DNA from: Kiritimatiellia bacterium
GTDB lineage: Bacteria; Verrucomicrobiota; Kiritimatiellia; RFP12; UBA1067
Direction of reading: 5' to 3'
Assembly (NCBI GenBank): GCA_017542055.1
Contig: JAFXXW010000023.1
Span: 22,839 to 86,838, forward strand
DNA length: 64,000 nucleotides
This document shows, piece after piece, positions 11,457-58,931 of the stretch. The notes under the pieces were generated by a model that was given only the letters and a program-made list of their open reading frames with translations, was not told the origin of the DNA and ran no database searches. Position 1 is the stretch's first letter, and the number at the start of each line of letters is the position of its first letter. Both the position numbers and the translations under genes were made by a program.

Positions 11457-14723
<3,267 letters not shown>

Positions 14724-14762
14724 TCAGCCTTTCACCAGCTTAAAACAATGTTAGTATCTAAT

Positions 14763-14791
14763 ATTATATCATATTCCGGCCAAAAAAGCAA
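14763..14791 (-). promoter_or_regulatory. Sigma70-type promoter upstream of gyrB
   Basis: Minus strand reads TTGCTT, a 17-bp spacer ending GGAATATGA, then TATAAT (extended TG-10). Belongs to the conserved promoter family in this window. Confidence 0.7.
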
Positions 14792-14808
14792 GCAAAATCT
14801 GCACCAAT

Positions 14809-14840
14809 CGGTAAATCGAACAATCGGTAAATCGGTAAAT
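14809..14840. repeat. 8-bp tandem repeat array (cggtaaat x4, one degenerate)
   Basis: cggtaaat cgaacaat cggtaaat cggtaaat, immediately upstream of the gyrB -35. The same array recurs at 51097 and 51825. Confidence 0.8.
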
Positions 14841-14842
14841 GC

Positions 14843-14932
14843 CGGGGGGGTGCCCACCCCCTCCCCCTATCGCCCAATAGGGCGTCACCCCCTCGCCATA
14901 CGGGGCGACACCCCGGGGGGTGCTTACCCCCC
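14843..14932. other. Cluster of GC-rich hairpins (homopolymeric G/C runs)
   Basis: Hairpins ggggggtg/caccccc, cgccc-aata-gggcg, tcgcc-atacgg-ggcga and gggggg-tgctta-cccccc. No T-tracts. Confidence 0.5.
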
Positions 14933-14993
14933 TCGCCCATACCCCCCCTTGAGCTTTTCCGTCTCGACCTGCACCCTGATTCCGATAGCCTTT

Positions 14994-15030
14994 GTATCTG
15001 CGCTTATTATATAAGCGCGCATCCAGATAC
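14994..15030. repeat. 37-bp imperfect nested palindrome
   Basis: GTATCTG CGCTTAT TAT ATAAGCG CGCATC CAGATAC: an 8-bp inner stem plus a 7-bp outer inverted repeat. Confidence 0.7.
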
Positions 15031-15043
15031 AATCGGTCCCGAC

Positions 15044-15063
15044 GAATCCGATATATCGGATTC
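15044..15063. repeat. Perfect 20-bp palindrome GAATCCGATATATCGGATTC
   Basis: The sequence equals its own reverse complement. The half-site ATCGGATT recurs at 15154. Confidence 0.85.
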
Positions 15064-15211
15064 CATCGAACATCTAATTCAAGGCAATAAAGATTCTATA
15101 ATATTTTTCGCAACTTGCCGTCAAGGCCAAAAGTGATTCCGACAAACTCCCTTATCGGATTTACCCTCCATCGGTTTCATCTAATTCAGCCAAAACGCAA
15201 TTTGCTTTAAT
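15064..15211. other. AT-rich region with iteron-like 22-bp direct repeats (tccatcg..catctaattca x2); candidate replication origin of the adjacent helicase module
   Basis: Sits immediately 3' of the helicase gene. GC is far below the window average. Direct repeats at 15062-15084 and 15167-15191. TATAAT-like and TTATCCATT motifs are present. Confidence 0.45.
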
Positions 15212-16873
15212 TTACTGCGCTTTATCCATTATTTTGCGATACTTTTTGTTGTTCCCGACACCAGTACTGATAAGTTCCACACCATATTCGGTCAAATTAT
15301 CTTTGAAGTAATTGCGGATGGTTCGCATCTCTTCTTCAGTCGGTTTTTTGCCGTCAATCTTGATATTGCTCTTGATGTAATGATCCAACTCGCCGGCGTT
15401 CGGCATCAAACGCTCGACAAATTGGGATAGTTCATTCCCGTATTCGGCGAGCTTGGAGTCGTCCAAGCCGTCTTTCTTGGCGGCCTTAGGCGCGTCGGTG
15501 TAAGGCACTTCGTGCCAATAGACCATATCGCCACCTTCATCGATTGCCGGATCGTGATAGCGGATGAACTTGACCGGCAGCGAATATTTCTCTTTGACCT
15601 CCTTGGGAATATCCCATCCTAGCTGCTTATGACGCTTGCTGCCCGCAAAATAGAAGTGACCGGGCTTGTTCTTTACCGGCCACAGGAGCATCGCCGCGCG
15701 CACCCAGTTGGGTAAGTCCGCGCCACCGATGGCCGTATACTGCGCATACTCGTTGATGGGGTTGGCATTGGCGTTGTTTTTGTTGTTCTCCTGCGGCTTC
15801 ACCGTGTGATGGATGAAGATGAGCCCGCACCCCAAGTGCTTGACCTCGGCATCCTCCGCCACTCCCGGCAATGGATTGAGCACCGGCTCAATGGCGCGAT
15901 CGAAGTAATACCGGAAGAGTTCGCGCGCCTTGTCGTTGTTGGAGATGTCCTCGCCCGCCACCCCCATCAGCGGATTGACGATAAACAGATCGAACGGTTT
16001 GCCGGAGTTGCGGAACTCCTCGCGCTGCACCGCGCGAATCCAGTTGGTGAAATCTTTGCCCTGCAACCCATTCTTGAAAAAGAGCCTTATGTTCGCTCCC
16101 ATTCGCGCGAAATCTTCGTCCGTCCAATGCTCCTCCTGCCGCAATCCCCGCTTGATGTCATCGCGGAAACGCACCATCTCGCTCTTGTTGTCTTCGGTGC
16201 CGTAGATGGCGATCTTGAGCGGATGCACCGGACGCAGCCCCAACATCGCCCGTCCATTGGCCCACGCCATCGCCAGTTGCATACACAAAACCGACTTGCC
16301 TTGTCCCGCCAGCGACACCAACATGGCCGCTCCCCCCTTCTGCAACCACTGGTCGCGGATGAGCGCGTCCGGATTGTGGTCGTCATCTACCGGAGCTTCC
16401 AGTTCGTCCAGCGAAACCCCGCAGAGATCCACCGCCGTTCCAGATCCCGGCAGGTGCTCCTTGACATATTCCAGCACCGATGCGATCTGCGCCGTCTTCA
16501 CCGACAAATCCGGCGCGGAGGTTTCGATTTCTCTGAGTTTCTCCTGCCGCCAGCGATCTAGCGTGGATTCCGCAAACTCCTTGAGCAACAACTCGAGTCC
16601 ATTCATGCTCACTTCGACGTAGTTGTAGCGCTCGCGGAAATCGTCGCCCAGATGCGTTTTGAGCCGGTCCACCAGAATCGGAATATCTTCCAGATAGGAG
16701 CCATCGACATTGCGCGCCGAGATAAGCACCTCGAAAGCTTTGCGTGTCTTTTCGAAAAGGAAATAGTCCGGCTTGATTTTCCACCGCTCCACCCGCTGCA
16801 ACATTTCCTCCATGCGATTGGAATTGCCCAACATCGCCAACAACACTTTCGTTTCGCATTCTAGCTGCGTCAT
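15212..16873 (-). CDS. MGE-type replicative helicase: DnaB-N-terminal-like domain + AAA_25 (RecA-like) ATPase + C-terminal domain of unknown function
   Basis: Real start MTQLECETKVLLAMLGNSN (ATGA overlap with the upstream gene). Walker A motif SLAGQGKSVLCMQLA. A DLFIVNPL...IFIHHTVK pattern. Confidence 0.65.
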   Translation of the reverse strand: MTQLECETKVLLAMLGNSNRMEEMLQRVERWKIKPDYFLFEKTRKAFEVLISARNVDGSYLEDIPILVDRLKTHLGDDFRERYNYVEVSMNGLELLLKEFAESTLDRWRQEKLREIETSAPDLSVKTAQIASVLEYVKEHLPGSGTAVDLCGVSLDELEAPVDDDHNPDALIRDQWLQKGGAAMLVSLAGQGKSVLCMQLAMAWANGRAMLGLRPVHPLKIAIYGTEDNKSEMVRFRDDIKRGLRQEEHWTDEDFARMGANIRLFFKNGLQGKDFTNWIRAVQREEFRNSGKPFDLFIVNPLMGVAGEDISNNDKARELFRYYFDRAIEPVLNPLPGVAEDAEVKHLGCGLIFIHHTVKPQENNKNNANANPINEYAQYTAIGGADLPNWVRAAMLLWPVKNKPGHFYFAGSKRHKQLGWDIPKEVKEKYSLPVKFIRYHDPAIDEGGDMVYWHEVPYTDAPKAAKKDGLDDSKLAEYGNELSQFVERLMPNAGELDHYIKSNIKIDGKKPTEEEMRTIRNYFKDNLTEYGVELISTGVGNNKKYRKIMDKAQ

Positions 16874-17451
16874 TGTCTTGCTCCTTCCGGCTTGTCTTCC
16901 TGCTCCACTCGATTCCATCTGCCGATCAGATTGTCGAAGCGCGCCCAAAGTTCCGAATACGCGCCAATCCACTTGGACGACATAAGTTCGCCAGTTTCGC
17001 CGGTGAATACATCCAGCCAAGCCTTACGCGTCGCATCATGCGCTTCGATGAGACGCAAGACCGGCCATTCCAGTTCCGGACGCTTTTCCGCCAAGAGACG
17101 GAAAAAGCCGTCCCACGACCGTTTCATCGCATCTAGCGCATCCTGTAGCGCATCCTGTTCTGGATACTTTAGTCTGCCGGCAAGCGCCGAAAAGCGGATG
17201 AGGTTGCTCACGTCGTAGGTGGCAAGCAGTTTGTGAATCTCTTGGACGGGAAAGTTGGCCGAATCGTCCTCACGCACTTGCCCCGCCAAATAATCCAGCA
17301 TTTTCGCGGACAACTCCGGCACCTGCACCAGCTCCGCCACCACCTTTCCGCGTTCCGAAATAAATCGCCTGGCGTTCGTGCGTGCCGCTTCCACCGCCAC
17401 TTTCGCGAGCGATCCCATTTCCGCGTTCTGTCTGGTTTCTTTTTCGAGCAT
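16870..17451 (-). CDS. Hypothetical protein (middle gene of the ATPase-helicase operon)
   Basis: 193 aa measured from MLEKET (an alternative start at 17472 is possible). No recognisable motif. Translationally coupled to the helicase gene. Confidence 0.5.
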   Translation of the reverse strand: MLEKETRQNAEMGSLAKVAVEAARTNARRFISERGKVVAELVQVPELSAKMLDYLAGQVREDDSANFPVQEIHKLLATYDVSNLIRFSALAGRLKYPEQDALQDALDAMKRSWDGFFRLLAEKRPELEWPVLRLIEAHDATRKAWLDVFTGETGELMSSKWIGAYSELWARFDNLIGRWNRVEQEDKPEGARQ

Positions 17452-17455
17452 ATCG

Positions 17456-18643
17456 TTATCGAAATAGATCAAGTGGATTCAGCGCCAGAAAATCTCCAAC
17501 CGGCATGCCTTCCGGCCCTACCAGCAAAACTCCATGCGGCTTGAATCGCTTGCGGAATTCCGCCATTCCCGAAGTAAACGTTTCTCGATTGGTCTTCACT
17601 TCGATCGCCACCAATTTCCCCTGTTTTTTCAGCACGAAATCAACTTCCAATTCGCCATCTCGCCAATACATCGCTTCGTAGTTGTCGACAAATGCCCTGG
17701 ACATCAAATGGGCCCCTACCGCCGATTCCACGCAGCGACCCCATTCTACCGGGTTGGACATGATATCTTTGGGCGGCACTCCAAGATAATGGCTCCTAAG
17801 CGAATTGTCGTGAACCTGGAATTTGGGCGAACTGGCCCGTTGGCGCGCCTGGTCGACCGTGCACTTGGGCAAGGCCGAAAGCATTCCGGCCGCCGATAGC
17901 AAAGCAAGGTACCCCGCGAGCGTGGTGGTATTGCCCGCATCGACGAGCGATCCCATCATCTTGGTGTAAGACAGTTCCTTGCCGGAATATTGCGCCCCCA
18001 ACTCGAATGCTTGCCTAAGTAGCGCCGGCTTGGCCACATTCGATCCCATCAGCACATCTTTCTGGATGGTGGCCTCGATTATCGAAGTGCCGATATATTC
18101 CGACCATCGTTCATAATCTTTCGCCAAGGTGGCAGCACCGGGGTAACCGCCGAAATACATATACTCCACTTCGTCAAATCCGAATGCCGCCTGCATTTCC
18201 GGGAAACTCCAATGCGCCACTCGCAACTCTTCGAATCTCCCCTGCATGGACTCGGACAGTCCTCGCTCCAGCATTACCCTTGAAGACCCCAACAATACCA
18301 CTTTAATGTTGACATCGGCGAAAGTATCCGCATCCCACTCTTTCTTGACCGCTTCGCTCCAATTGCGGATCTTCTGGATTTCGTCGATCGCCAGCACGAA
18401 TTCCCGATCGCCGCCCACTCGCATCCTGGTGCGAGCCAATTCCCAGGTATCGCCGATCCATCCCAGATTTTCGCTGGGAACTGCATCGGCCGAAACATAC
18501 AAGTACGGAACCTCAAGTTTGCTCAAAACCTGCTTGACAATGGTCGTCTTGCCCACTTGCCTGGGGCCCACCAATACTTGGATGAACCTGCGCGACTCTT
18601 TCAATCGCGCCAACAGTTTTCCGCATGCCTCACGTTCGTACAT
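17456..18643 (-). CDS. AAA+ ATPase (AAA_14-like) fused to a DUF4143 domain carrying a PD-(D/E)xK-like nuclease motif
   Basis: Walker A motif GPRQVGKTT. C-terminal WRDGELEVDFVLKKQGKLVAIEVK, i.e. a D..EVD...K / E-x-K arrangement. Confidence 0.75.
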   Translation of the reverse strand: MYEREACGKLLARLKESRRFIQVLVGPRQVGKTTIVKQVLSKLEVPYLYVSADAVPSENLGWIGDTWELARTRMRVGGDREFVLAIDEIQKIRNWSEAVKKEWDADTFADVNIKVVLLGSSRVMLERGLSESMQGRFEELRVAHWSFPEMQAAFGFDEVEYMYFGGYPGAATLAKDYERWSEYIGTSIIEATIQKDVLMGSNVAKPALLRQAFELGAQYSGKELSYTKMMGSLVDAGNTTTLAGYLALLSAAGMLSALPKCTVDQARQRASSPKFQVHDNSLRSHYLGVPPKDIMSNPVEWGRCVESAVGAHLMSRAFVDNYEAMYWRDGELEVDFVLKKQGKLVAIEVKTNRETFTSGMAEFRKRFKPHGVLLVGPEGMPVGDFLALNPLDLFR

Positions 18644-20453: not shown

Positions 20454-20763
20454 AGCATCCTTTCGTTTTCTGTTTTACCGCGTGCGATCCACAAAAAGAA
20501 AACCTCCCTTTGTATCTCTAGAGAGGCTGTGAGAATTGCCCAGATGGAAATACAAAGAGAGGAAGTGCGTTTGCACTTTCCCTGCCAAGTTTCGTCCATC
20601 TTGAAACTTCTCACATTTCTCTAGACGATCGCTTTGCAGCGTTGCAAATTGTCTGTCACTCCGCGCGTTGGCGCGGCGACGTTTGGCGGGGCGTTGCCCG
20701 CCTATACCGTTTTACCTTCTGCCGTTTCCTTTCATTCGGTTCAACGATGGTTTGAAATCTTGC

Positions 20764-21407: not shown

Positions 21408-21430
21408 GGATTTCCCCGTTAGATGCTAAT

Positions 21431-21459
21431 ATTATACCATATTCCCACCCGAAAAGCAA
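21431..21459 (-). promoter_or_regulatory. Promoter P1 of the MNT-HepT operon
   Basis: Minus strand reads TTGCTT, a 17-bp spacer, then TGGTATAAT. Confidence 0.65.
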
Positions 21460-21614
21460 GCAGAATCTGCGAAAACTCCCCAACTCCAAAACTCCCCCAA
21501 GCGAAAGCAACTCCCCACCCGTCAAGCGGAAAGCGGGGAAAGTGTGAGACGGGAGGTATGGTCAGTAGGCGGCGAGCTTGAGTTCGTCCGTCATGCCCTT
21601 GAAGAAATCCGAGT

Positions 21615-50049: not shown

Positions 50050-51000
50050 CTACTTATCGCGCTGAAAAAAGTTGAATATTCCCGCCATCAAAGCGCCCGA
50101 AACCGAATGCCATACGCACGACACGGCCGAGGCGATGGCCGCCTCCGGCATGAGCGGAAAGTGCTTCCCGGCGAGGACTGTCGCAAGGCCCGCGTTCTGC
50201 ATTCCCACCTCGATCGACACCGTCCGCTTCTTGGGCGCGGAGAATCGGGCCGCCACGCCTGCCGCGTATCCCAAGAGATAGCCGAGCGCGTTATGGAGAA
50301 ACACCGCCACGAAAATCAGCACCCCAGACTCCATGAACTTGGCCCCGTGCGCCGACACCACGCCGCCCACGATGCACGCGAGCCCCAGCACCGCCAGGCC
50401 CGGCATAACTTTCATCGCCTCGCGATAGGCCGCGCGCCGTCCGAACGCGGAATTGAGCACGTAGCCGCCCGCCACCGGGAGGAGCGTCACGAGCAGAATC
50501 GACTTGAACATCCCGATCGCGTCGATGTCCACGTTCTCGCCCGCCAGCCACAGCATCAACAGCGGCGTCGTGAGCGGCGCGAAGAGCGTGGAAAACGTGG
50601 TGAGTCCCACCGAAAAAGCCACGTCGCCCTTGCAGAGAAACGTCATGATGTTGGATGACACCCCGCCCGGGCAGCAGCCCACCAGGATAAGCCCCACCCC
50701 TACCGCCTTGGGGAGCCCCATCACGTGCACCAGCAGCCACGCCACGCCCGGCATCACCATAAACTGCGCCAACGCCCCTACCGCGATATCCCAAGGCCGC
50801 GACGCCAAAATGCGGAAATCTTCCGTCTTGAGCGTCATGCCCATCGTAAGCATGATGAAGCCCAGCACCGCAGTCTGCGCATAGCCGCGCACCCAGTCGA
50901 ACACTCCCGGCGCGAAATACGCCCCCACCGCCACTCCGGCCACGAACAGCGGCGTCCACTTGGTCAACCACGCCGCCACCCTCTGCAATTGTTTCATCAT
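50050..51000 (-). CDS. Bile acid:sodium symporter (BASS) family transporter
   Basis: CPGGVSSN motif. The ATG at 51000 follows a GGAGAG SD; the track ORF starts at an upstream TTG. Confidence 0.75.
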   Translation of the reverse strand: MMKQLQRVAAWLTKWTPLFVAGVAVGAYFAPGVFDWVRGYAQTAVLGFIMLTMGMTLKTEDFRILASRPWDIAVGALAQFMVMPGVAWLLVHVMGLPKAVGVGLILVGCCPGGVSSNIMTFLCKGDVAFSVGLTTFSTLFAPLTTPLLMLWLAGENVDIDAIGMFKSILLVTLLPVAGGYVLNSAFGRRAAYREAMKVMPGLAVLGLACIVGGVVSAHGAKFMESGVLIFVAVFLHNALGYLLGYAAGVAARFSAPKKRTVSIEVGMQNAGLATVLAGKHFPLMPEAAIASAVSCVWHSVSGALMAGIFNFFQRDK

Positions 51001-51036
51001 CGTTCTTCTCTCCAAGTTTTGCTTTTTAAGCCGCGT

Positions 51037-51065
51037 ATTATATCATATTTTCCCCAAAATTGCAA
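51037..51065 (-). promoter_or_regulatory. Promoter-family copy upstream of the BASS gene (part of direct-repeat block B)
   Basis: Minus strand reads TTGCAA, a 17-bp spacer, then TGATATAAT. Confidence 0.6.
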
Positions 51066-51096
51066 GCGGAAAGTGCACATTCACACTAATCACAAT

Positions 51097-51128
51097 CGGT
51101 AAATCGATAAATCGGTAAATCGGTAAAT
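51097..51128. repeat. 8-bp tandem repeat array (cggtaaat x4)
   Basis: cggtaaat cgataaat cggtaaat cggtaaat. Confidence 0.8.
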
Positions 51129-51145
51129 TCTCAGTTAAACACCAA

Positions 51146-51167
51146 GGGCTGGGATTGCTCCCAGCCC
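51146..51167 (-). terminator. Perfect hairpin GGGCTGGGA-TTGC-TCCCAGCCC downstream of the DUF5615 gene
   Basis: 9-bp GC-rich stem with a 4-nt loop, followed on the minus strand by TTGGTGTTTAA. Confidence 0.55.
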
Positions 51168-51173
51168 CGAGTA

Positions 51174-51524
51174 TTAGCGCTTGATCCGGCAAGAGTAGTC
51201 GCGCAAGATACAGACCGTGTCGACCAATGAAGAACCGGCATTGGCCAGAAACCATTTGAGCCGCTCCATGATGGCTCGCCGATTGGGCTGTCTGAGCGCC
51301 ACCACCACTATTCCGGCATGATGCGGATGCAAGAGCGGAACCGTATGGTAAAAGTCGCGATCCGAAGTAAGAATCACCGCTCCCAACCTTTGGGCCGTCG
51401 CGAAAACATCGTCGTCCTCAGCGCCGAAATCGCACGCATCTTCAAACGCAATTGCGATATGCCCGCACTCCTCTACGACCTCGGCCGCAGACTTGGGGAA
51501 GTTCTCGTCCAGCAGAAACTTCAT
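51174..51524 (-). CDS. DUF5615 PIN-like toxin-type protein
   Basis: MKFLLDENFP start. 116 aa. Paired with a DUF433 gene. Confidence 0.7.
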   Translation of the reverse strand: MKFLLDENFPKSAAEVVEECGHIAIAFEDACDFGAEDDDVFATAQRLGAVILTSDRDFYHTVPLLHPHHAGIVVVALRQPNRRAIMERLKWFLANAGSSLVDTVCILRDYSCRIKR

Positions 51525-51757
51525 CAGACCACCGACAAATTACCGTACGGCATGTCTTCAAAGCTGGCAAGCGAACCTGCAAACGCGAAGACTGCGGAAA
51601 TGTCTTCCGAAGTAATGCTGGGATAATCCATCATTATATCGTTTACCGAATCGCCTCCGGCAAGCGCACCAAGCAATTGTGACACCAAAACTCTAGTGCC
51701 GCGAATGACCGGTTTGCCGTGGCAGACGGACGGATTTATCTCAATTCTTTCATTCAT
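51524..51757 (-). CDS. DUF433 domain protein (putative antitoxin)
   Basis: INPSVCHGKPVIRGTRV motif. Real start MNERIEI lies 7 nt from the -10 element. Confidence 0.7.
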   Translation of the reverse strand: MNERIEINPSVCHGKPVIRGTRVLVSQLLGALAGGDSVNDIMMDYPSITSEDISAVFAFAGSLASFEDMPYGNLSVV

Positions 51758-51764
51758 GCCTAAT

Positions 51765-51793
51765 ATTATATCATATTTTCCGCCAAATTGCAA
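51765..51793 (-). promoter_or_regulatory. Promoter of the DUF433-DUF5615 cassette (block A); predicted leaderless
   Basis: Minus strand reads TTGCAA, a 17-bp spacer, TATAAT, then ATTAGGC and ATG. Confidence 0.65.
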
Positions 51794-51824
51794 GCGGAAA
51801 GTGCACATTCACACTAATCACAAT

Positions 51825-51856
51825 CGGTAAATCGATAAATCGGTAAATCGGTAAAT
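51825..51856. repeat. 8-bp tandem repeat array (cggtaaat x4)
   Basis: Identical to the array at 51097. Confidence 0.8.
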
Positions 51857-51872
51857 TCTCTATAAACACCAA

Positions 51873-51894
51873 GGGCTGGGATTGCTCCCAGCCC
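51873..51894 (-). terminator. Perfect hairpin GGGCTGGGA-TTGC-TCCCAGCCC downstream of the giant gene
   Basis: Same hairpin as at 51146. Sits about 30 nt after the stop at 51924. Confidence 0.55.
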
Positions 51895-51923
51895 TCGATC
51901 GTTAGCGCTAAGCTAAAGCGTGC

Positions 51924-54900
51924 TTAGTTGTTAGGCGTGGCACTGACCTTGACGCGATAGAACACCGCAGTAGGCGTGCCATTCACCGCCGGCTTCACGG
52001 GGTCGACAGATGCGCTGGTCGCCAACTTGCGAGTGCCCTCGGTCTTACCTTCAGTGAAGCCCAGGTTGGTGGCCGCCTCGATGGAGTAGTAGAGGCCAGG
52101 CTTGGCAGTCGTGATCGTGACTTCAGTGGCATCAGCATCAAGCGCATCCGCCAGGCCTTCAGTCAGTTCATCGGATTCCGAAGCCGGGAACACAACCTCT
52201 TCATTGAGGTCATTGACCGGATCGACCTTCACTTCATACTTACCGTATGTCGCAGACTGCGTCACCGTGTAGTTGAAGTAGGTCTTGTAAGTTTCGGCCG
52301 TTACGCCAGTAGCGGCAGCGACCACAGCTTCCGGAATCTTCACCGAAGCTGCCGCGATAGCTGCTTCCTCGATCTGCGCCTGAGTCTTGCCCGCAGGGTC
52401 GACCGCCACTTCCTGCGTGGAAGTCGAATCGGTCGGATCGATGCCGGCAGACGCCAGCGTGTAGTAGCCAACCTCTTCGGCTTCCACCCACTTGTAGCCA
52501 TTAGGAATTTCCGAAGTCCAGGTAGCGGAAACCGCAACCGTAATACTGACTTTGCTCATGTCATTGTTGTCATCAACAACAGCAACCGCCTTTGTGGCGG
52601 AGAGCGAAGCTCCGGTCTCGATCCGAACATCGATCGTACGATTGGCATCATACTGGGCAACCGCAATCGCCGCGCCCTTGATGGTGGCACCATTGCCAGT
52701 AGGATTGTAGGAATAGGTGGCTACCGTGCCCGTAATGGAGGCGTTCATGGCAACGGACAAACTACCGTCACGGATTTCGATGCCGGACTCGCCTTTGACG
52801 ATGGCAGTACTGCCAACCGTTACATTAGCATGGCCCTGGACCGCGATACCGCTGTGAACATTTTCTCCACCAGTTGCCTCGGACGCATCAACCGTGCCGT
52901 TCACGACAATGTTGATCTCGTTCTCCTGATTCCTCAGGTTGCCGAGCACGAAGAGCATGCCCTTGACGGTGCCATTGACGGTCACATCAATCTTATTCTT
53001 CGTTGCATTGTTGGAGCCGAACACATTGAGACCATAGCAAGTGCCCTCAAGCGTGACATTCTGACCGATTGTGAGCGTACGCTTGCTGGTCAAATCGCCA
53101 GTGCCACGAATCTCAATCGGAGCCCAAGCAACATCAGTGCATGTAATCTTGCCCGTGCCAGTAACAGTCAAGCTACCACCAGCCAATGCAATTCCGTGCG
53201 TGGTAGTGATGTTGCAGTTGTTGAGATCAAGCGTAATGGCCTTATTCTCGGTCGTAGTAGCATAACGTCCCGAGCCCGCGAAGGCCGGCTCTGCACCCGC
53301 ATTCACGAAGAGACGCTCAGTCAGAGCCACATTGGACACCAACGTCACTGTCTGCCCGTCGGTTGCCGCAGCAAGCGCCTCAGCGAGGGTGGGATACAGC
53401 GTGGTGCCGATTTTGGCCTGAGCCATCGCGAAGGTAACATTGACGACCGAATCACCAGTCACAGCGGCAGTGTAGACATTGCCCACCGGAGCCGGTAGAT
53501 CAACCGGATCGGCTGCGCCCACCTTGATGGTGGCCGAGCTGACGAGGCGGTCACCATAGGGGGTCACCGTGAACGAGAGATCCGCGCCATCCTTGACGTA
53601 GAAGTAGGCTCCTGACGGACCGCCCATTTCAGCCGCGACAGCTTCCGGAACCTGACGGACCAGATCACCAATCGTTACGACGACATTACCGTCACCCGAC
53701 AGATAATCCATCTTAACCGTGCGGCGCTCGCCATAGCCATACTTGACGCGACGGTTGGGCGTCACACCGCTTATGGTCTCCACAATCCAGGTAGTGTCAC
53801 CCAAGAAGAAGGACATCTCATCGCCAATGACATAGCCGCCATCGACCGTGATGTCGATTCCCTGTCCGAACGAGACGGTCTCGCCCACATCGATCGTCAC
53901 CGCCTTATCAAGCACCAGCGCATCAGGCACCGCCTGAAGGAGCTTGACCGTCTGGCCAGCCTCGGCCGCCTCGAGGGCCTCGGAGAAGGTCTCGTACTTC
54001 ACGCCGCCGACCTCTGCGACCCAAGTACCGGCCTGAACGACCCAGTAGCCTTCCTGGAGCTTGGCAATACGGCCAGTGGCGAGGAAGTTCGTGCAGAGGC
54101 CGGAGTCGTCACCCTCTTCAGGGTTGACCTGCCAGAAGGAGCCGCCAGTAATGGTGATGAGCTGCTGAGCTACGTTTGCCTGGTTGACCGCCATGCCCGT
54201 CCAGCCAGTCTTGTACTGGTATTCAACAGCGGTGTTGTTCCTGTAGGTACCGCTATTGATGGTAACAGCAGCACCAGTGAACGGATAGACGCAAGCACCA
54301 GCCTGGGAATTGACGGTGACTGTGAGGTCTTCGAGCGTGACATTCGAGCCGGTTCGCGCCGTGATGGCGTAAACACCAGTAGCAACAATTGCGGTATCGT
54401 CCTGCGTGCAGTCGATGGTGCCGTTCTTGATGGTGACCGTGCCGCTCTTGACGTCGAACACGCTGCCGTTGCCGGAGGTGCCGGTACGGGTGATCTTGTG
54501 TCCGTTCAGGTTAATCGTGACCGGCGACATACCGGGACTCGGTTCCACGCGCTCCGTCAGCGTGATATCTTTGAGGACAACCACTTCCGCGTTATACGCA
54601 GTGGCCACAGCTACTGCCCCGGCCAGCGAATCGTAGAGGGTATAATCCACCCGGGCAACCGCTTCCTTGACCTCCATACCTTCCGGTCGAGTAACCGTGT
54701 CGGTATCGGCAGTAAGGGAAATCACCTTCTGAGAAGCGCCATTGATCACATAATCACCATCTGCCGTATAGGTGATGGTTACATTCTCTCCTATCCTCGC
54801 TTTATAGGTGTTGGTATCGGCATCAACCACTTCAGCATCCCCACCCTGCACCGAGATGGTCGTATTGTCCGGAACCTCGACAGTGAAGGTCTTAAACGCC

Positions 54901-57900
54901 AGTTTGAACGGAATGGTAATGGACAGATCGCCGGTCACCGCAGGAATGGTCGCTACAGCAACCGTTTCGTCCTCTTCCGGCTCTTCCGGTTCGATTTCTT
55001 CGGTGATATCTGCATCACCCATGACAACGGAGAGATCATCACTGTCCCCATCGATTTCGTAGTCCTCATCAGGCGTGATTGTGATTGTCACCTCAACACC
55101 GTGCTTGACCGTGTAAGGCGAAGCCGTACCCTTGATGTCGCTTGCGGAAATAGCAACCGAACCATGCTCAGTTGCAGCAACCGTAACCGTATGCGAAGCA
55201 GCATAGCCAATCGACACGACATTGCCCGCAGTGGCCGCCCAGGTGTCGGTGCCGAGGGTATAGGTGGTGCCAGCCGCAAGGGAAATCATACCGGTCGTCA
55301 TCGTCACCGTGCCCACGCTAGTAACGCCAGAGGCCGCATTAATCGTGAGATTCTTGTCGAGCGTGATGCTCTCGACATTCTTGTTGAGCGTAATCGTGTC
55401 GCCCTCGCTTGCGGCTTCAATCGCGGCAGCCAGAGTCGCATACGGCGTGTTGTCGTACGTCGCCTCCGCCAGAGTCGCCACGAGCTCGTAGTAACCGTTC
55501 TTGTAGTTCTTCGTGTAGAAGTAGTTGACATTGGTAGGAGGCACCACTGTCACCTTGTTGTCAGCCTGATCGATGAGACCGGTGAGCTGATATTCCCCTT
55601 CCGTAACGGCGAGACCCGAGCAGTCGAAGGTCAGCGAACCATCCGCGCTAAGCTGAACCGGAACACCGGTCAAGTCCAGCGCGCCATATTCCGTAGTCAC
55701 CGGAGTATTGATGACGGCAGCCGACGTCGGCTTGACAAAGTTGTCTTCCTCCTTTTCAACCGTAAGCGCCGCATTGCCGCCAATGGTCAGCGTCTCCACG
55801 TTGAGCGTTGCGTTAACGGCCAGAGCAGCGGCACCGTCGACCGTAATCGTCACGGAAGTATTGTAGCCTTCAACAACGCTTTCCGGCAGATCGTACTTGT
55901 TCTCCGTATCGCCGTCGCGATCCCACGCGTCAGTGGCTTCGAGTTCCACCTCGCCGGAAACCGTACGCGTGTAAAGACCACCCTGCGGGACGTAAGGATA
56001 GGCATCAACGATTGCTGCCGCCTGAGCATCCGAAATGGCGTAGTCGAACACCCGGATTACGTTTACAACGCCAGTCTCGGATTCATTGTCGGCAACACCC
56101 TTCCAGATGCCTGCACTGCGAACTCCATTACCGAAGTCCGCACCAACCTGCAAACCGGCCTGGGCAGTCGAACCAAGCGTAAACCCTTCACCGGCATCAA
56201 AGTTGCCACGCTTGATACCGTCAACCCAAACCGTGAATTCCGTTCCGCTCTTGACGATTACGTATGCATGGCGAGCAGTCGCCGCGTTCGGCACCGACAC
56301 CTTAACACCATGTGCATCGTCAACCGTACCGCCAGTATTCTTGGCGATCAAAACCTCATCGGCTTTCTCGGTAGTGGCAATCATGAGGCCGGTGCTGGTG
56401 CTGTGATACGAGCCACCCATGTGGACAAATATCGTCTTGGCTGTCGGCGACATCTGTCCCACCACAACCGCAGTAAAGTTATCGAGCGACGAGAACACGT
56501 CATTGGCATCATTGATGTAGGGCGAGCAACGCAGATAAAGACCGGTCGTTTCATCCCAAGCGTCATTATTGAAAGTCGCCGCGTGGTCGAAATACAGTCG
56601 CGCGCCTTCCTTTGCCTTGTAAGTGAAGGTGCCGGGGTTTTGACCATATCCAGACTTGCCGACATCGTCGCGATTGTTGGCGAAGGTGATATCGAACATT
56701 GTTGCCGCGCCGCCAATCTTCACTTCACCCGTGCCTCGAGAAGCGCTGCCGTTCTCCACCTCCAGAGTCGAGGTCGTTCCGTCGACGCGATTGAGCTTTA
56801 CGTACGAAACTCCTTCCAGATTGGAAACGGCAAACCTATCGTTTCCATATTCCGCTGACGTTTCTTTAATCACAACCGTCGAACCGGTAGTGAACTTAAA
56901 CTCTGCAGGCAACGTGCGGGTGGCACTGATATCGTACACCACATTGGCCCCCAGCGAAATGTCGCCCGTCACCTCGGTGAAATCAAGTTTCTCCACCAGC
57001 ACCTGCGTAAGTTCCGCCTCGCTCGTAAACGCCAGCGTGAAGGAACCGGAGCAAACAAACTTGACGTAATCGTACGTCTCCAGCAACGCAGCCAAATCAA
57101 CCGTGCTGGTTCCGCCGTCTGCAACTTCGATTGTCTTGAACGCCGGCTCAGCCTTGATGATCTGAACTGCCGCAAGACCGGCTCTGGCACCAGGCATGGC
57201 ACGGGTAGTGATCTTGAGCGTTCCTTCTTCACCTCGCGGCAGGATGGGGGAAACCAGATAGTTGCCGTTTTCGGTCAAAGTCGCATTATTGGCGGAACCC
57301 CACTTTTCGGTTCCCCAATACTCCACATCATTAAGCGAGACGTACCCAAACTGTCTGCCGTCGGTATCGTTCGAGAAATAAAGGACCACGCGATAGTAGT
57401 CGAACTCGGACGGAATACCGGTTATAGTGGCAATCGGCGTATCAGTCCCGTTGTTCCGATCGTCAATATAACCATGCAACAAACTCTTAGTCGCCTTGCC
57501 GCCACAGTACCAAGAACCTCTCGTGTCCTCCACCTTGACGCTTGTTCCGGCGGAAACCACCTTGTATCCGGCAGTGGAAACCTTGCTGACGGTCGAAAGC
57601 GGCGAATTGAACGTGCTACCGCCAACCGATGTCATCGTGCTCCAATACGTTCCCGGCACCGCATAGTCGCTCGCGCCAACCTTGCCGGAGGTGGAAATGA
57701 CGGTAGTGCCGGAAGCGAAGTTGATGTTGATGGAGGGATTCACATTACCGGTAAATCCGGCAATCGGCGTATTAGCATTTGCAATCGTAGCAATCTCTTC
57801 AGCCGTAAGCGCACCCTTGAAGATCGCAAAGTCGTCGATATAGGTCGTTCCAATGCTCTGCCCGCGAAGCGACGCATCAGCTGCAGAGCCGGCACGTCCC

Positions 57901-58931
57901 GGGCCCATTGCCGCCTGCTTCAGCACACCGGAAAAGCCGGAGGCGGTCTTGACGCTAGTTCCATTCTGATAAACCGTCAGGCTGCCATCGGTTCCGAATA
58001 CCAGCGCATAGTGCGCCCACTCGCCGGCAGTGTAGGCAAGTCCTGCAAACGGAGCATCGCCAGTGCCTCTATACATTGCAAACGAATCATTGGACATATG
58101 TTCCAAACGATAGTTCTCGCTACCGATGCGCAGCGCAATGAAGGAAGCCCAATCCTGAATATCGGATCCGATGTTGGCCCAGAACGAAACCGTGAAGCCT
58201 TCGGAAGTTCCGACGCCAAGGCCGCTCGTGTTGTCTGCCAGACCCAACGTGCCGCTATTGAGCTTGGCGGACTTAGTGCCAAACTTGACCTCGGTTCCAT
58301 CATAATTGCGATAACCGCTTTTCCAAGCTGTCGGAACTACGGTACCAATGCCGCCATCGGTCGCCAGCGCCACGCCGCCATCACCACAGTTGTCGCAAGA
58401 GATATAGTACAGTAGCTCGCTATGGACCAGCTTTAGACCCGAGACGCCATAACCATTCGTCGAATCGGAAGTGGCAGGAGCAATGGAAGCCTCTCCGTTG
58501 TAGGTGCCATTCTCACCTGACTCCTGGAAGCGATAACCTATGCCATTGGAAGCGGCGATATAACGGGCATTGGTGGCTACCGCCTTGATGTTATCGCCAT
58601 CCTGCGTAAGTTCCACGATAACGCACTTGATGTAGCTGCCATCCTTGGTTTGCAATTCGTAGCGCACCACGTCTTCGGACGAAGAGTTGGTGAACGTGTC
58701 GCGGTTGCACACGGCCGCAGGACCGGGATTGTCGATATAGCCGCCATCCATCGTTGCCGCGAGGAAGTACTTGGTGCCGATTTCCGAAAGCTGCACGCCC
58801 TCGAAAACGGTCGTCGCCGTAGTCGGCACGTACGCATCATATACGAGCGACGTTGCCCATGCACTTGTTCCTAGTATTGCCGCGCATGCGAGGGCGACAA
58901 AACGCATAACCCTTCCTGACGTATGTTTCAC
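51924..58931 (-). CDS. Giant (2335 aa) secreted repetitive surface protein with two LamG/concanavalin-like domains and beta-helix-like repeats
   Basis: GTG start with an AAGGAGG SD. Sec signal MKHTSGRVMRFVALACAAILGTSAWA. LamG-like segments FTVSFWANIG...LTVYQNG and IFVHMGG...FTVWVDG. Thr/Val/Gly-rich repeats. C-terminal FYRVKVSATPNN. Confidence 0.7.
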   Translation of the reverse strand: MKHTSGRVMRFVALACAAILGTSAWATSLVYDAYVPTTATTVFEGVQLSEIGTKYFLAATMDGGYIDNPGPAAVCNRDTFTNSSSEDVVRYELQTKDGSYIKCVIVELTQDGDNIKAVATNARYIAASNGIGYRFQESGENGTYNGEASIAPATSDSTNGYGVSGLKLVHSELLYYISCDNCGDGGVALATDGGIGTVVPTAWKSGYRNYDGTEVKFGTKSAKLNSGTLGLADNTSGLGVGTSEGFTVSFWANIGSDIQDWASFIALRIGSENYRLEHMSNDSFAMYRGTGDAPFAGLAYTAGEWAHYALVFGTDGSLTVYQNGTSVKTASGFSGVLKQAAMGPGRAGSAADASLRGQSIGTTYIDDFAIFKGALTAEEIATIANANTPIAGFTGNVNPSININFASGTTVISTSGKVGASDYAVPGTYWSTMTSVGGSTFNSPLSTVSKVSTAGYKVVSAGTSVKVEDTRGSWYCGGKATKSLLHGYIDDRNNGTDTPIATITGIPSEFDYYRVVLYFSNDTDGRQFGYVSLNDVEYWGTEKWGSANNATLTENGNYLVSPILPRGEEGTLKITTRAMPGARAGLAAVQIIKAEPAFKTIEVADGGTSTVDLAALLETYDYVKFVCSGSFTLAFTSEAELTQVLVEKLDFTEVTGDISLGANVVYDISATRTLPAEFKFTTGSTVVIKETSAEYGNDRFAVSNLEGVSYVKLNRVDGTTSTLEVENGSASRGTGEVKIGGAATMFDITFANNRDDVGKSGYGQNPGTFTYKAKEGARLYFDHAATFNNDAWDETTGLYLRCSPYINDANDVFSSLDNFTAVVVGQMSPTAKTIFVHMGGSYHSTSTGLMIATTEKADEVLIAKNTGGTVDDAHGVKVSVPNAATARHAYVIVKSGTEFTVWVDGIKRGNFDAGEGFTLGSTAQAGLQVGADFGNGVRSAGIWKGVADNESETGVVNVIRVFDYAISDAQAAAIVDAYPYVPQGGLYTRTVSGEVELEATDAWDRDGDTENKYDLPESVVEGYNTSVTITVDGAAALAVNATLNVETLTIGGNAALTVEKEEDNFVKPTSAAVINTPVTTEYGALDLTGVPVQLSADGSLTFDCSGLAVTEGEYQLTGLIDQADNKVTVVPPTNVNYFYTKNYKNGYYELVATLAEATYDNTPYATLAAAIEAASEGDTITLNKNVESITLDKNLTINAASGVTSVGTVTMTTGMISLAAGTTYTLGTDTWAATAGNVVSIGYAASHTVTVAATEHGSVAISASDIKGTASPYTVKHGVEVTITITPDEDYEIDGDSDDLSVVMGDADITEEIEPEEPEEDETVAVATIPAVTGDLSITIPFKLAFKTFTVEVPDNTTISVQGGDAEVVDADTNTYKARIGENVTITYTADGDYVINGASQKVISLTADTDTVTRPEGMEVKEAVARVDYTLYDSLAGAVAVATAYNAEVVVLKDITLTERVEPSPGMSPVTINLNGHKITRTGTSGNGSVFDVKSGTVTIKNGTIDCTQDDTAIVATGVYAITARTGSNVTLEDLTVTVNSQAGACVYPFTGAAVTINSGTYRNNTAVEYQYKTGWTGMAVNQANVAQQLITITGGSFWQVNPEEGDDSGLCTNFLATGRIAKLQEGYWVVQAGTWVAEVGGVKYETFSEALEAAEAGQTVKLLQAVPDALVLDKAVTIDVGETVSFGQGIDITVDGGYVIGDEMSFFLGDTTWIVETISGVTPNRRVKYGYGERRTVKMDYLSGDGNVVVTIGDLVRQVPEAVAAEMGGPSGAYFYVKDGADLSFTVTPYGDRLVSSATIKVGAADPVDLPAPVGNVYTAAVTGDSVVNVTFAMAQAKIGTTLYPTLAEALAAATDGQTVTLVSNVALTERLFVNAGAEPAFAGSGRYATTTENKAITLDLNNCNITTTHGIALAGGSLTVTGTGKITCTDVAWAPIEIRGTGDLTSKRTLTIGQNVTLEGTCYGLNVFGSNNATKNKIDVTVNGTVKGMLFVLGNLRNQENEINIVVNGTVDASEATGGENVHSGIAVQGHANVTVGSTAIVKGESGIEIRDGSLSVAMNASITGTVATYSYNPTGNGATIKGAAIAVAQYDANRTIDVRIETGASLSATKAVAVVDDNNDMSKVSITVAVSATWTSEIPNGYKWVEAEEVGYYTLASAGIDPTDSTSTQEVAVDPAGKTQAQIEEAAIAAASVKIPEAVVAAATGVTAETYKTYFNYTVTQSATYGKYEVKVDPVNDLNEEVVFPASESDELTEGLADALDADATEVTITTAKPGLYYSIEAATNLGFTEGKTEGTRKLATSASVDPVKPAVNGTPTAVFYRVKVSATPNN

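Follow-up and report, generated by a model that had tools for sequence, protein, structure and literature searches.

We found that the AT-rich block between a helicase gene and gyrB in a contig of a gut or rumen Kiritimatiellia bacterium (assembly GCA_017542055.1, contig JAFXXW010000023.1) is probably the core of an iteron-type replication-origin-like region. The window, that is, the whole stretch of DNA that was analyzed, comprises 64,000 nucleotides (nt), and all positions given here are those of the window. The region, which would extend over at least 14842-15211, appears to belong to a helicase module on a lower-G+C island upstream of gyrB. This module is likely to be a compact one, consisting of a gene for a 193-residue protein, a gene for a DnaB/RepA-like helicase, and the putative origin. 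We favor the origin-like reading because the layout of the region is conserved, its repeats are lineage-specific, the repeats are opposed in orientation around an easily melted center, and the site is placed strictly 3' of a replicative-type helicase gene.

Sequence elements of the region

The spacer between gyrB and the helicase gene is 497 nt long (14715-15211) and lies between two minus-strand genes. The original prediction, made from the letters of the sequence, described the part at 14994-15211 as a palindrome-rich, AT-rich block in GC-rich DNA and proposed that it was protein-binding DNA (an origin, a partition site, or an operator) rather than a spacer. By direct reading, we found all of the elements that it had listed: GTATCTG-CGCTTAT-TAT-ATAAGCG-CGCATC-CAGATAC at 14994-15030, the perfect 20-bp palindrome GAATCCGATATATCGGATTC at 15044-15063, the direct repeats tccatcgaacatctaattca (15062-15081) and tccatcggtttcatctaattca (15167-15188) of 20-22 bp, and ATCGGATTTACC at 15154-15165. 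The base composition was also as described, with 40% G+C at 14994-15211 versus about 62% for the window. The limits of the block were drawn too narrowly, as the functional unit appears to be bigger and to cover at least 14842-15211.

With offsets given along the helicase strand and starting from the stop codon, the first repeats appear 24 nt past the stop codon at 15212. Repeat cluster 1 (15137-15188, +24 to +75, minus strand) holds copy A of the direct repeat (15167-15188) and an imperfect inverted pair of TCCGAYA repeats (15135-15144 and 15153-15162), which are separated by an 8-nt gap and have a short T run next to them on the minus strand. An AT-rich spacer with 30-35% G+C (15084-15136, +76 to +128), whose plus strand carries TATAATATT, separates cluster 1 from cluster 2 and is a candidate DNA-unwinding region. 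Repeat cluster 2 (15031-15083, +129 to +181, minus strand) contains copy B of the direct repeat (15062-15081) and the 20-bp palindrome (15044-15063), which is made up of one repeat and its inverse.

The central palindrome (14994-15030, +182 to +218) is abutted by ATCGG at 15031. Its core, GCGCTTATTATATAAGCGC (GCGCTTATATAATAAGCGC on the helicase strand; 15000-15018, +194-212), has G+C-rich arms and an A/T-only center. On its far side there is an inverted repeat copy, GATTCCGATAG, on the plus strand (14979-14989, +223 to +233), so that opposed repeats, ATCGG at 15031 and CCGAT at 14981, flank the palindrome. Together, GATTCCGATAG and ATCGG at 15031 lengthen the arms to 26 nt with 73% complementarity. 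Upstream of the central palindrome, the orientations are mixed. Farther on lies a second array (14842-14950, +262 to +370, minus strand) of about three G/C-rich units of 31-35 nt with the pattern TATGG(G)CGAGGGGG(G)T.A.C, each of which is able to form a hairpin between a G run and a C run. A tandem 8-bp array ATCGGTAA(AT) of 4.4 copies (14805-14841) could be assigned either to the origin-like region or to the gyrB promoter.

Some of these elements are statistically enriched in the spacer. CCGAT/ATCGG occurs nine times in the 497 nt as compared with 1.25 +/- 1.25 per 497 nt over the window; this is the window maximum, and every 261-nt segment with at least six copies falls inside the spacer. 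The TCCGAYA repeat is present in five copies within 14978-15162, and the type of palindrome with G+C-rich arms and an A/T-only center has its single occurrence in the whole window at 15000-15018. When duplex stability was examined, as the original prediction had proposed for detecting unwinding elements, 15086-15105 and 15069-15108 were among the seven least stable sites in the 64 kb, and they were the only ones of the seven that are not consensus promoter sites.

The poly-G runs at 14881-14950 vary in length (G7, G8, and G10) among metagenome contigs of the same island. These differences look to us like a sequencing or assembly artifact, or they may be real length variation. Of six short contigs (L082-L087), four stop at about 14881-14896. 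We considered these ends as an island boundary or attachment site and rejected the idea, as they fall in length-variable poly-G runs and look like an assembly problem.

Helicase and partner protein

The helicase gene (15212-16873, minus strand; stop codon at 15212-15214) encodes a 553-residue DnaB/RepA-like protein of the RecA fold (Pfam AAA_25). Its relatives were reached via an exhaustive HMMER search and via a search seeded with the protein P0013; word-indexed protein searches, with either the window helicase or the family alignment, returned the query itself only. The HMMER search gave 1511 relatives, the best of which are 31-40% identical over nearly the full length (about 500 residues), and the top matches (E = 4e-60 to 1e-45) span residues from about 7 to 551. 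In the alignment of the family (alignment A1), the N-terminal domain is helical, the core is of the RecA type with a Walker A motif, and the C-terminal domain is conserved; the window helicase keeps all 23 invariant columns. The extra C-terminal domain, at residues of about 472-547, has the predicted order helix-helix-helix-strand-strand.

An AlphaFold model built from the alignment had a predicted local distance difference test (pLDDT) score of 84 overall and of about 90 in the C-terminal domain. By Foldseek, this model matched DnaB replicative helicases best in the PDB (about 470-510 aligned columns), with RSF1010 RepA next. The latter was also the sole, weak PDB match by sequence with the family profile. 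The predicted fold of the helicase is thus DnaB-like.

Searches of sequenced mobile elements revealed no close counterpart in plasmids or phages. A tblastn search of plasmids and phages with the window helicase gave no matches, and tblastn against sequenced plasmids and phages gave only weak matches of the ATPase core to Microbacterium phage primase/helicase genes and one match to a Wolbachia phage. There were no nucleotide matches to the block in plasmids or phages, and the 20-mer palindrome had no match in viral contigs.

The partner gene (16870-17451, minus strand) encodes a 193-residue, all-helical protein, and its stop codon overlaps the helicase start codon at 16873. The same open reading frame (ORF) was also called as a gene in the identical metagenome contigs. 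No match to the protein was found in Pfam, PHROG, or NCBIfam. All nine loci of the closer subfamily described below encode a homolog of 189-219 residues just ahead of the helicase gene, with the stop and start codons overlapping or abutting. BLASTP comparison of the 193-residue protein with the closer-subfamily partners, including those of L129, L128, L130, and L126, gave E values from 6e-7 to an upper value of 4e-4 or 6e-4 (alignment A2).

Layout downstream of the helicase gene in relatives

The proposal that the block is protein-binding DNA gained its support from the comparison of helicase relatives, which appears to favor an origin among the options originally named. The closer subfamily comprises nine loci found through P0013. 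In those loci where the next gene is reached, the helicase gene is followed by 300-660 nt of non-coding DNA. This DNA contains short repeats that differ from lineage to lineage (GGAAAACC, CGTTTTTCC, CGGGAAAT, GTGGAAAAG, and CTGAAAAY), and the first repeat clusters lie directly past the stop codon in L124, L127, L129, L133, and others. All of the lineages examined have palindromes composed of a repeat and its inverse, such as GGAAAACCGGTTTTCC in L124, CTCCCAAATTTGGGAC in the phage-like group (see below), and AAATCCACTTTTCC...GGAAAAGTGGATTT in L100.

Central palindromes with G+C-rich arms and a TATATA-type core also recur, as GCGCCTATATATAATAGGCGC in L130, AGCGCCTATTATATATAGGCGCT in L126, ACGCGCCTATATATAATATAGGCGCGT in L133, and GCGCCTATATTAAGATAGGCGC in L124. 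This type of palindrome was found past the helicase stop codon in L100, L103, L126, L129, L130, L133, and L134, and in looser forms in L124, L127, and L132. It had 14 matches in 1.69 Mb of fetched loci, 13 of which were located 70-400 nt past a helicase-family gene; the remaining match was among about 1.3 Mb of gyrB loci. The orientation of the repeats flips across the central palindrome in the window and in L126, L129, L130, and L133. Where enough sequence was present, inverted repeats lay directly past the central palindrome and were followed by a second array. The second arrays of the relatives consist of longer direct repeats and begin about 20-130 nt past the central palindrome. Their units are CCTCGGTAGGTC in L124 (about four copies), CGGTAGACGGGT in L126 and L130, and a GGAAGGTTT-like sequence in L133 (about eight copies). 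The array of L129 has about seven units of 33 nt containing GGGGGGTAAGC, which is common to the second array of the window. No terminal overlaps were found in the contigs of the relatives when they were examined for circularity.

A phage-like group of relatives, from viral and rumen metagenome contigs, is about 30-38% identical over the ATPase core, and the neighboring genes encode a gpA-like large terminase, an N6 DNA methylase, and a PD-(D/E)XK nuclease. In nearly every locus of this group, about 200 nt past the helicase stop codon are non-coding and have one fixed layout: five forward 7-mers at about +15, 29, 41, 73, and 80, a central hairpin at about +90-115, and, on the far side, three or four inverted 7-mers at about +132, 166, 176, and 186. 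A palindrome arises from the third forward 7-mer together with an inverted copy. The 7-mer itself is lineage-specific (CTCCCAA, TGCGACA, GTCCCAA, or GTGGGAA), and all copies switch together. The more distant L097, L100, and L113 follow the same principle with other repeats. Lineage-specific repeats in a fixed layout are what a cis-acting site would show if the DNA-binding protein that reads it diverged.

The window fits the layout in order, with cluster 1, the AT-rich spacer, cluster 2, the central palindrome, the inverted repeat, and the second array. The layout recurs past the helicase gene in at least eight independent lineages, and its constant partner is the helicase gene, which across these lineages is 28-45% identical in the ATPase core. 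The window also has the other features of the module, namely the partner of about 200 residues encoded upstream, the membership of its helicase in the family, a palindrome 70-400 nt past the stop codon, and a second array.

Two further observations were made in the phage-like loci. In the approximately 200 nt past the helicase stop codon of L088-L118, runs of G and C are kept whatever the repeat type (TAGGGGG on the left side of the hairpin, and CCCCACCCCC..CCCCC on its right side), and these conserved runs may bind a common factor. The next gene after the region encodes a protein that starts with MPRKPKAKKP..TIIEDTREQTPL.

Genomic setting

The gyrB gene (12516-14714, minus strand) encodes a protein with the Pfam domains DNA_gyraseB, Toprim, and HATPase_c, which is 75-89% identical to homologs in nearly all retained gut and rumen metagenome assemblies of Kiritimatiellae (Kiritimatiellia). 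Both flanking genes had been named correctly in the original prediction. The block goes with the helicase and not with gyrB: no nucleotide match to it was found in the gyrB loci of 80 related species, and none of these 80 loci carries the helicase, the neighboring island genes, or the block. Absence of the block from relatives that retain the flanking genes had been proposed as evidence against a function. The block is absent upstream of gyrB in the 80 species, but the helicase is absent too, and the comparison does not apply in the form in which it was framed. Many related species have the order metallophosphatase-(serpin)-gyrB, in which the spacer measures just tens of bases, whereas in the window about 9.5 kb separates the serpin gene from gyrB. 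The DNA upstream of gyrB here is an acquired element and not native regulatory DNA.

The island, at about 15.0-21.6 kb, has 50-55% G+C as compared with 62% for the window. Its genes encode the AAA_25 protein, the 193-residue protein, an ATPase of the AAA_14/DUF4143 type, two SHOCT lipoproteins, and a HepT/MntA toxin-antitoxin pair. There is no tRNA gene near the island. An identical helicase was found in 14 metagenome contigs, with the same surrounding genes in all seven of the places shown. Only one such contig extends past the spacer, and gyrB is present there too.

An ATPase gene of the AAA_14/ATPase_2 type adjoins the helicase module both in the window (17456-18643, upstream) and in L127 (2534-3658, downstream of the repeat region) and is possibly accessory to the element. 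The spacer at 20461-20740, between the start of a SHOCT lipoprotein gene (20453) and the stop codon of HepT (20764), was the strongest-folding low-G+C segment after correction for G+C content (z about -2.7) and could hold a structured RNA or terminators. A second lower-G+C stretch of the window (54-58% G+C) contains a single ORF of 2335 residues (51924-58931, minus strand).

We also considered the chromosomal origin, oriC, and rejected it, because the cumulative G+C skew falls steadily over the whole window, the spacer contains no DnaA box with up to one mismatch, and the region is absent from relatives.

Recurrent promoters and 8-bp arrays

A promoter consensus, TTGC(T/A)..-17-TGATATAATATT, was found nine times in the window as compared with zero expected, always on the minus strand (14759, 18712, 21427, 21611, 31625, 39008, 50009, 51761, and 62957). 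These sites are also among the least stable duplexes of the window. In related species, a similar element, TGGTATAATAT, is located about 40 nt upstream of gyrB. A 53-nt repeat (14750-14802 and 21418-21470, 83% identical) was considered as a target-site duplication of the island and rejected, as it matches this recurrent consensus; the native gyrB promoter in relatives is similar.

Tandem 8-bp arrays (ATCGGTAAAT/ATCGATAAAT, about four copies) are present at 14805-14841, 51093-51128, and 51821-51856, and the 8-bp motif has 12 matches in the window versus 2.2 expected. Each array is located 50-90 nt upstream of a strong consensus promoter; the three promoters are those of gyrB, of a predicted membrane-protein gene (50050-51015), and of a small two-gene cassette. 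The CGGTAAAT arrays at 51093-51128 and 51821-51856, about 36 kb from the block, are nearly identical to that at 14805-14841, and the presence of like arrays upstream of two distant promoters argues for a promoter-linked array at 14805-14841. A link to the origin is indicated by the CCGAT core contained in the array and by the occurrence of CCGATTTACCG inside the post-helicase region of L127. The arrays may be sites for a regulator, or they may go with the helicase element.

Nearly exact duplicates of a module of about 150 nt, made up of the promoter, the CGGTAAAT array, and a terminator hairpin rich in G+C, are present at 51020-51170 and 51750-51900. The two copies flank two small genes (51524-51808 and 51174-51524) that appear toxin-antitoxin-like from their sequences, which suggests the insertion of a cassette with duplication of the promoter module.

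Alternative explanations

Several points weigh against the origin-like reading. The window has the layout and the central-palindrome type in common with the relatives and no alignable sequence; a profile of the phage-group regions had no match in the window. The repeats of the window are fewer and less regular than those of the relatives: there are about five copies of TCCGAYA, and upstream of the palindrome the forward ones are intermingled with reverse ones. In the phage-like group, the repeat type does not covary cleanly with the whole N- or C-terminal domain of the helicase or with the 420-residue protein encoded upstream. The assignment of the C-terminal domain of the helicase as winged-helix-like comes solely from the order of predicted secondary-structure elements, and a single-sequence model of the isolated domain had low confidence (pLDDT 57). 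As there is no recognizable integrase, primase, or initiator gene in the island, the origin-like site may be an inactive relic.

The region could instead be another protein-binding site of the same module, that is, a centromere-like partition site, an operator for copy control or autoregulation, or, in the phage relatives, a packaging site. Arrays of short direct and inverted repeats also mark centromere-like sites, operators, and terminase-binding sites, and the longer tandem repeats of the second arrays are similar to those of centromeres or incompatibility determinants. The phage-group region is within about 2 kb of the terminase genes, between the replication genes and the nuclease-terminase block, where a role in packaging is possible, and the lack of clean covariation with the helicase domains fits such a site as well. 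However, neither the window nor the closer subfamily has a ParA/ParB-like or small-terminase gene adjoining the region, the one partner kept throughout is the helicase gene, even where the lineages have diverged widely in the ATPase core, and opposed repeats around an easily melted center directly 3' of a helicase gene are the layout of the SaPI (Staphylococcus aureus pathogenicity island) origin. We regard this explanation as unlikely. Still somewhat less likely, in our estimate, is a structured nucleic acid, such as a 3' untranslated region, terminator, or processing structure, an antisense control RNA from TATAATATT, or a single-strand hairpin signal. The spacer does fold better than shuffles of the same sequence (z = -3.9 as DNA and -4.0 as RNA), the concerted change of forward and inverted repeats would also keep pairing in a transcript or in single-stranded DNA, and the pRN1 origin requires an intact stem-loop (PMC4234260). 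A terminator-like match on the minus strand (15159-15138; nine pairs, of which three are G-C; tail ATCACTTTTG), which is located 53 nt past the stop codon, is weak; it could end the helicase operon and accounts for only a small part of the block. T runs are lacking after the central palindrome of both the window and the relatives and after the 20-bp palindrome of the window. The plus-strand TATAATATT is identical to the -10 region of the consensus promoter of the organism, but this TATAAT has no good -35 element. No Rfam family reached the threshold in the region, and the unequal numbers of forward and inverted copies, together with their irregular spacing, suit protein sites better than helices. 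Moreover, the total folding energy after correction for G+C content does not make the block an outlier among all segments of the window (z about -1.2), so that the signal lies in specific symmetric elements and not in overall foldability.

The same unremarkable foldability would suit a plain AT-rich spacer bordering a horizontally acquired island, with its symmetry due to chance or local duplication. The 20-bp palindrome is the longest perfect one of the 64-kb window, but it is weak evidence when taken alone, because the longest perfect palindromes in simulated sequences had a mean maximum of 16.8 bp and reached 24 bp. In addition, the conservation of the block itself is not measurable because the public data hold only near-identical copies of this exact block. 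We nevertheless consider an ordinary spacer very improbable, given the density of CCGAT/ATCGG, the location of the single G+C-armed, A/T-cored palindrome at the place where the relatives have theirs, and the recurrence of the layout in independent lineages.

Comparison with known systems

An iteron origin directly past the gene of a self-loading helicase is known. The SaPI origin lies directly downstream of rep and has 6-12 short (5-6 nt) iterons, an AT-rich center, and opposed iterons on each side (PMC9371898). SaPI Rep is a self-loading helicase whose C-terminal winged-helix domain binds the iterons (PMC9371898; PMC7581432), and it is an AAA+ helicase that has been placed with the MCM group (PMC9371898). 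In SCCmec (staphylococcal cassette chromosome mec), inverted and direct repeats just downstream of the helicase gene form a putative origin, and direct 5-nt iterons are needed for the binding of the C-terminal domain of Cch2 and for unwinding (PMC7581432). The minimal replicon of pRN1 has a small-protein gene, a helicase gene, and an essential stem-loop of about 100 nt within 166 bp directly downstream of the helicase-primase gene (PMC4234260).

Like the SaPI origin, the region in the window is located directly past the helicase ORF and has multiple short repeats of 5-7 nt, opposed across an A/T-cored palindrome, with an AT-rich spacer and an extra C-terminal domain in the helicase. It differs in its RecA-fold, DnaB/RepA-like helicase, in the G+C-armed palindrome at its center, in its second array, in having no adjacent primase gene, and in its Kiritimatiellae host. 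The position of the repeats in intergenic DNA just downstream of the helicase gene is shared with SCCmec, whereas the class of helicase and the number and arrangement of the repeats are different, and SCCmec has the polymerase-primase pair CCPol-MP. Membership in the AAA+ Rep/Cch clade, which is grouped with MCM, was not supported, as the window helicase matches DnaB and RSF1010 RepA and belongs to Pfam AAA_25. Because the helicase has the RecA fold and not the AAA+ fold, the system of the window would work like the SaPI/SCCmec family without being a member of it by descent. The similarity to pRN1 consists of a stem-loop or palindrome region just 3' of the helicase gene and a small-protein gene in the module; unlike the window, pRN1 is an archaeal plasmid from Sulfolobus with a fused primase-polymerase and superfamily 3 helicase, and no iteron arrays have been reported to be essential in it.

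The RepA protein of RSF1010, a plasmid of incompatibility group Q (IncQ), is matched by the family profile and, by Foldseek, corresponds to the ATPase core of the window helicase. RSF1010 uses a separate initiator, RepC, and a primase, RepB', and its oriV is not known to lie directly 3' of repA. The IncQ oriV is built from iterons, segments rich in G+C or in AT, and priming sites that form hairpins. Unlike RSF1010, the window has no RepC-like or RepB-like gene, and its helicase has added DnaB-like N-terminal and C-terminal domains.

A classical plasmid iteron origin of the Rep_3/RepA type, such as those of RK2 and pPS10, has tandem 17-22-bp iterons spaced by helical turns beside the gene of a dedicated winged-helix initiator, usually together with DnaA boxes. 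Such an origin was considered and rejected, as the two 20-22-bp repeats are 107 bp apart and not in tandem, and the region has neither a DnaA box nor a Rep_3-like gene.

Proposed mechanism

For the origin-like region, we infer protein binding, a candidate binder, melting, and replication as follows. A DNA-binding part of the module would recognize the TCCGAYA/CCGAT repeats, which form two clusters and reverse their direction across the central palindrome. The likeliest candidate for this part is the winged-helix-like C-terminal domain of the helicase, and the alternative candidate is the 193-residue partner. The bound protein would melt the TATATA-type core of the palindrome or the neighboring AT-rich spacer. 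The hexameric helicase would then load itself at the melted DNA, probably as one ring per direction, and the primase and polymerase of the host would take over after helicase loading. The G/C-rich second array may serve copy control, handcuffing, or partition.

More tentatively, the module may represent a replicon type of phages and integrated elements associated with uncultivated gut and rumen Kiritimatiellae. In such a replicon, a DnaB-like helicase of superfamily 4 would recognize, and load at, its own palindrome-centered 3' origin with a partner of about 200 residues, convergently with the AAA+ Rep/ori systems, and the copy in the window would be able to fire; we hold this wider proposal to be possible and lean slightly away from it. 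What would be new is the use of a DnaB/RepA-like instead of an AAA+ helicase, the partner of about 200 residues, the G+C-armed palindrome with a TATATA core, the second array, and the occurrence in uncultivated Kiritimatiellae elements.

Implications

Testable predictions follow from the analysis, which names defined repeat sequences, a putative loading site, and two proteins that are candidates for binding. The G+C-armed, A/T-core palindrome past AAA_25 helicase genes could mark the origins of phages and integrated elements in metagenomes, and a minimal replicon of about 2.7 kb could be a starting point for building plasmid vectors for use in Kiritimatiellae and gut bacteria related to them. 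If the origin-like reading is true, the layout in which a helicase reads an origin placed after its own gene extends to another class of helicase and to a phylum with almost no genetics.

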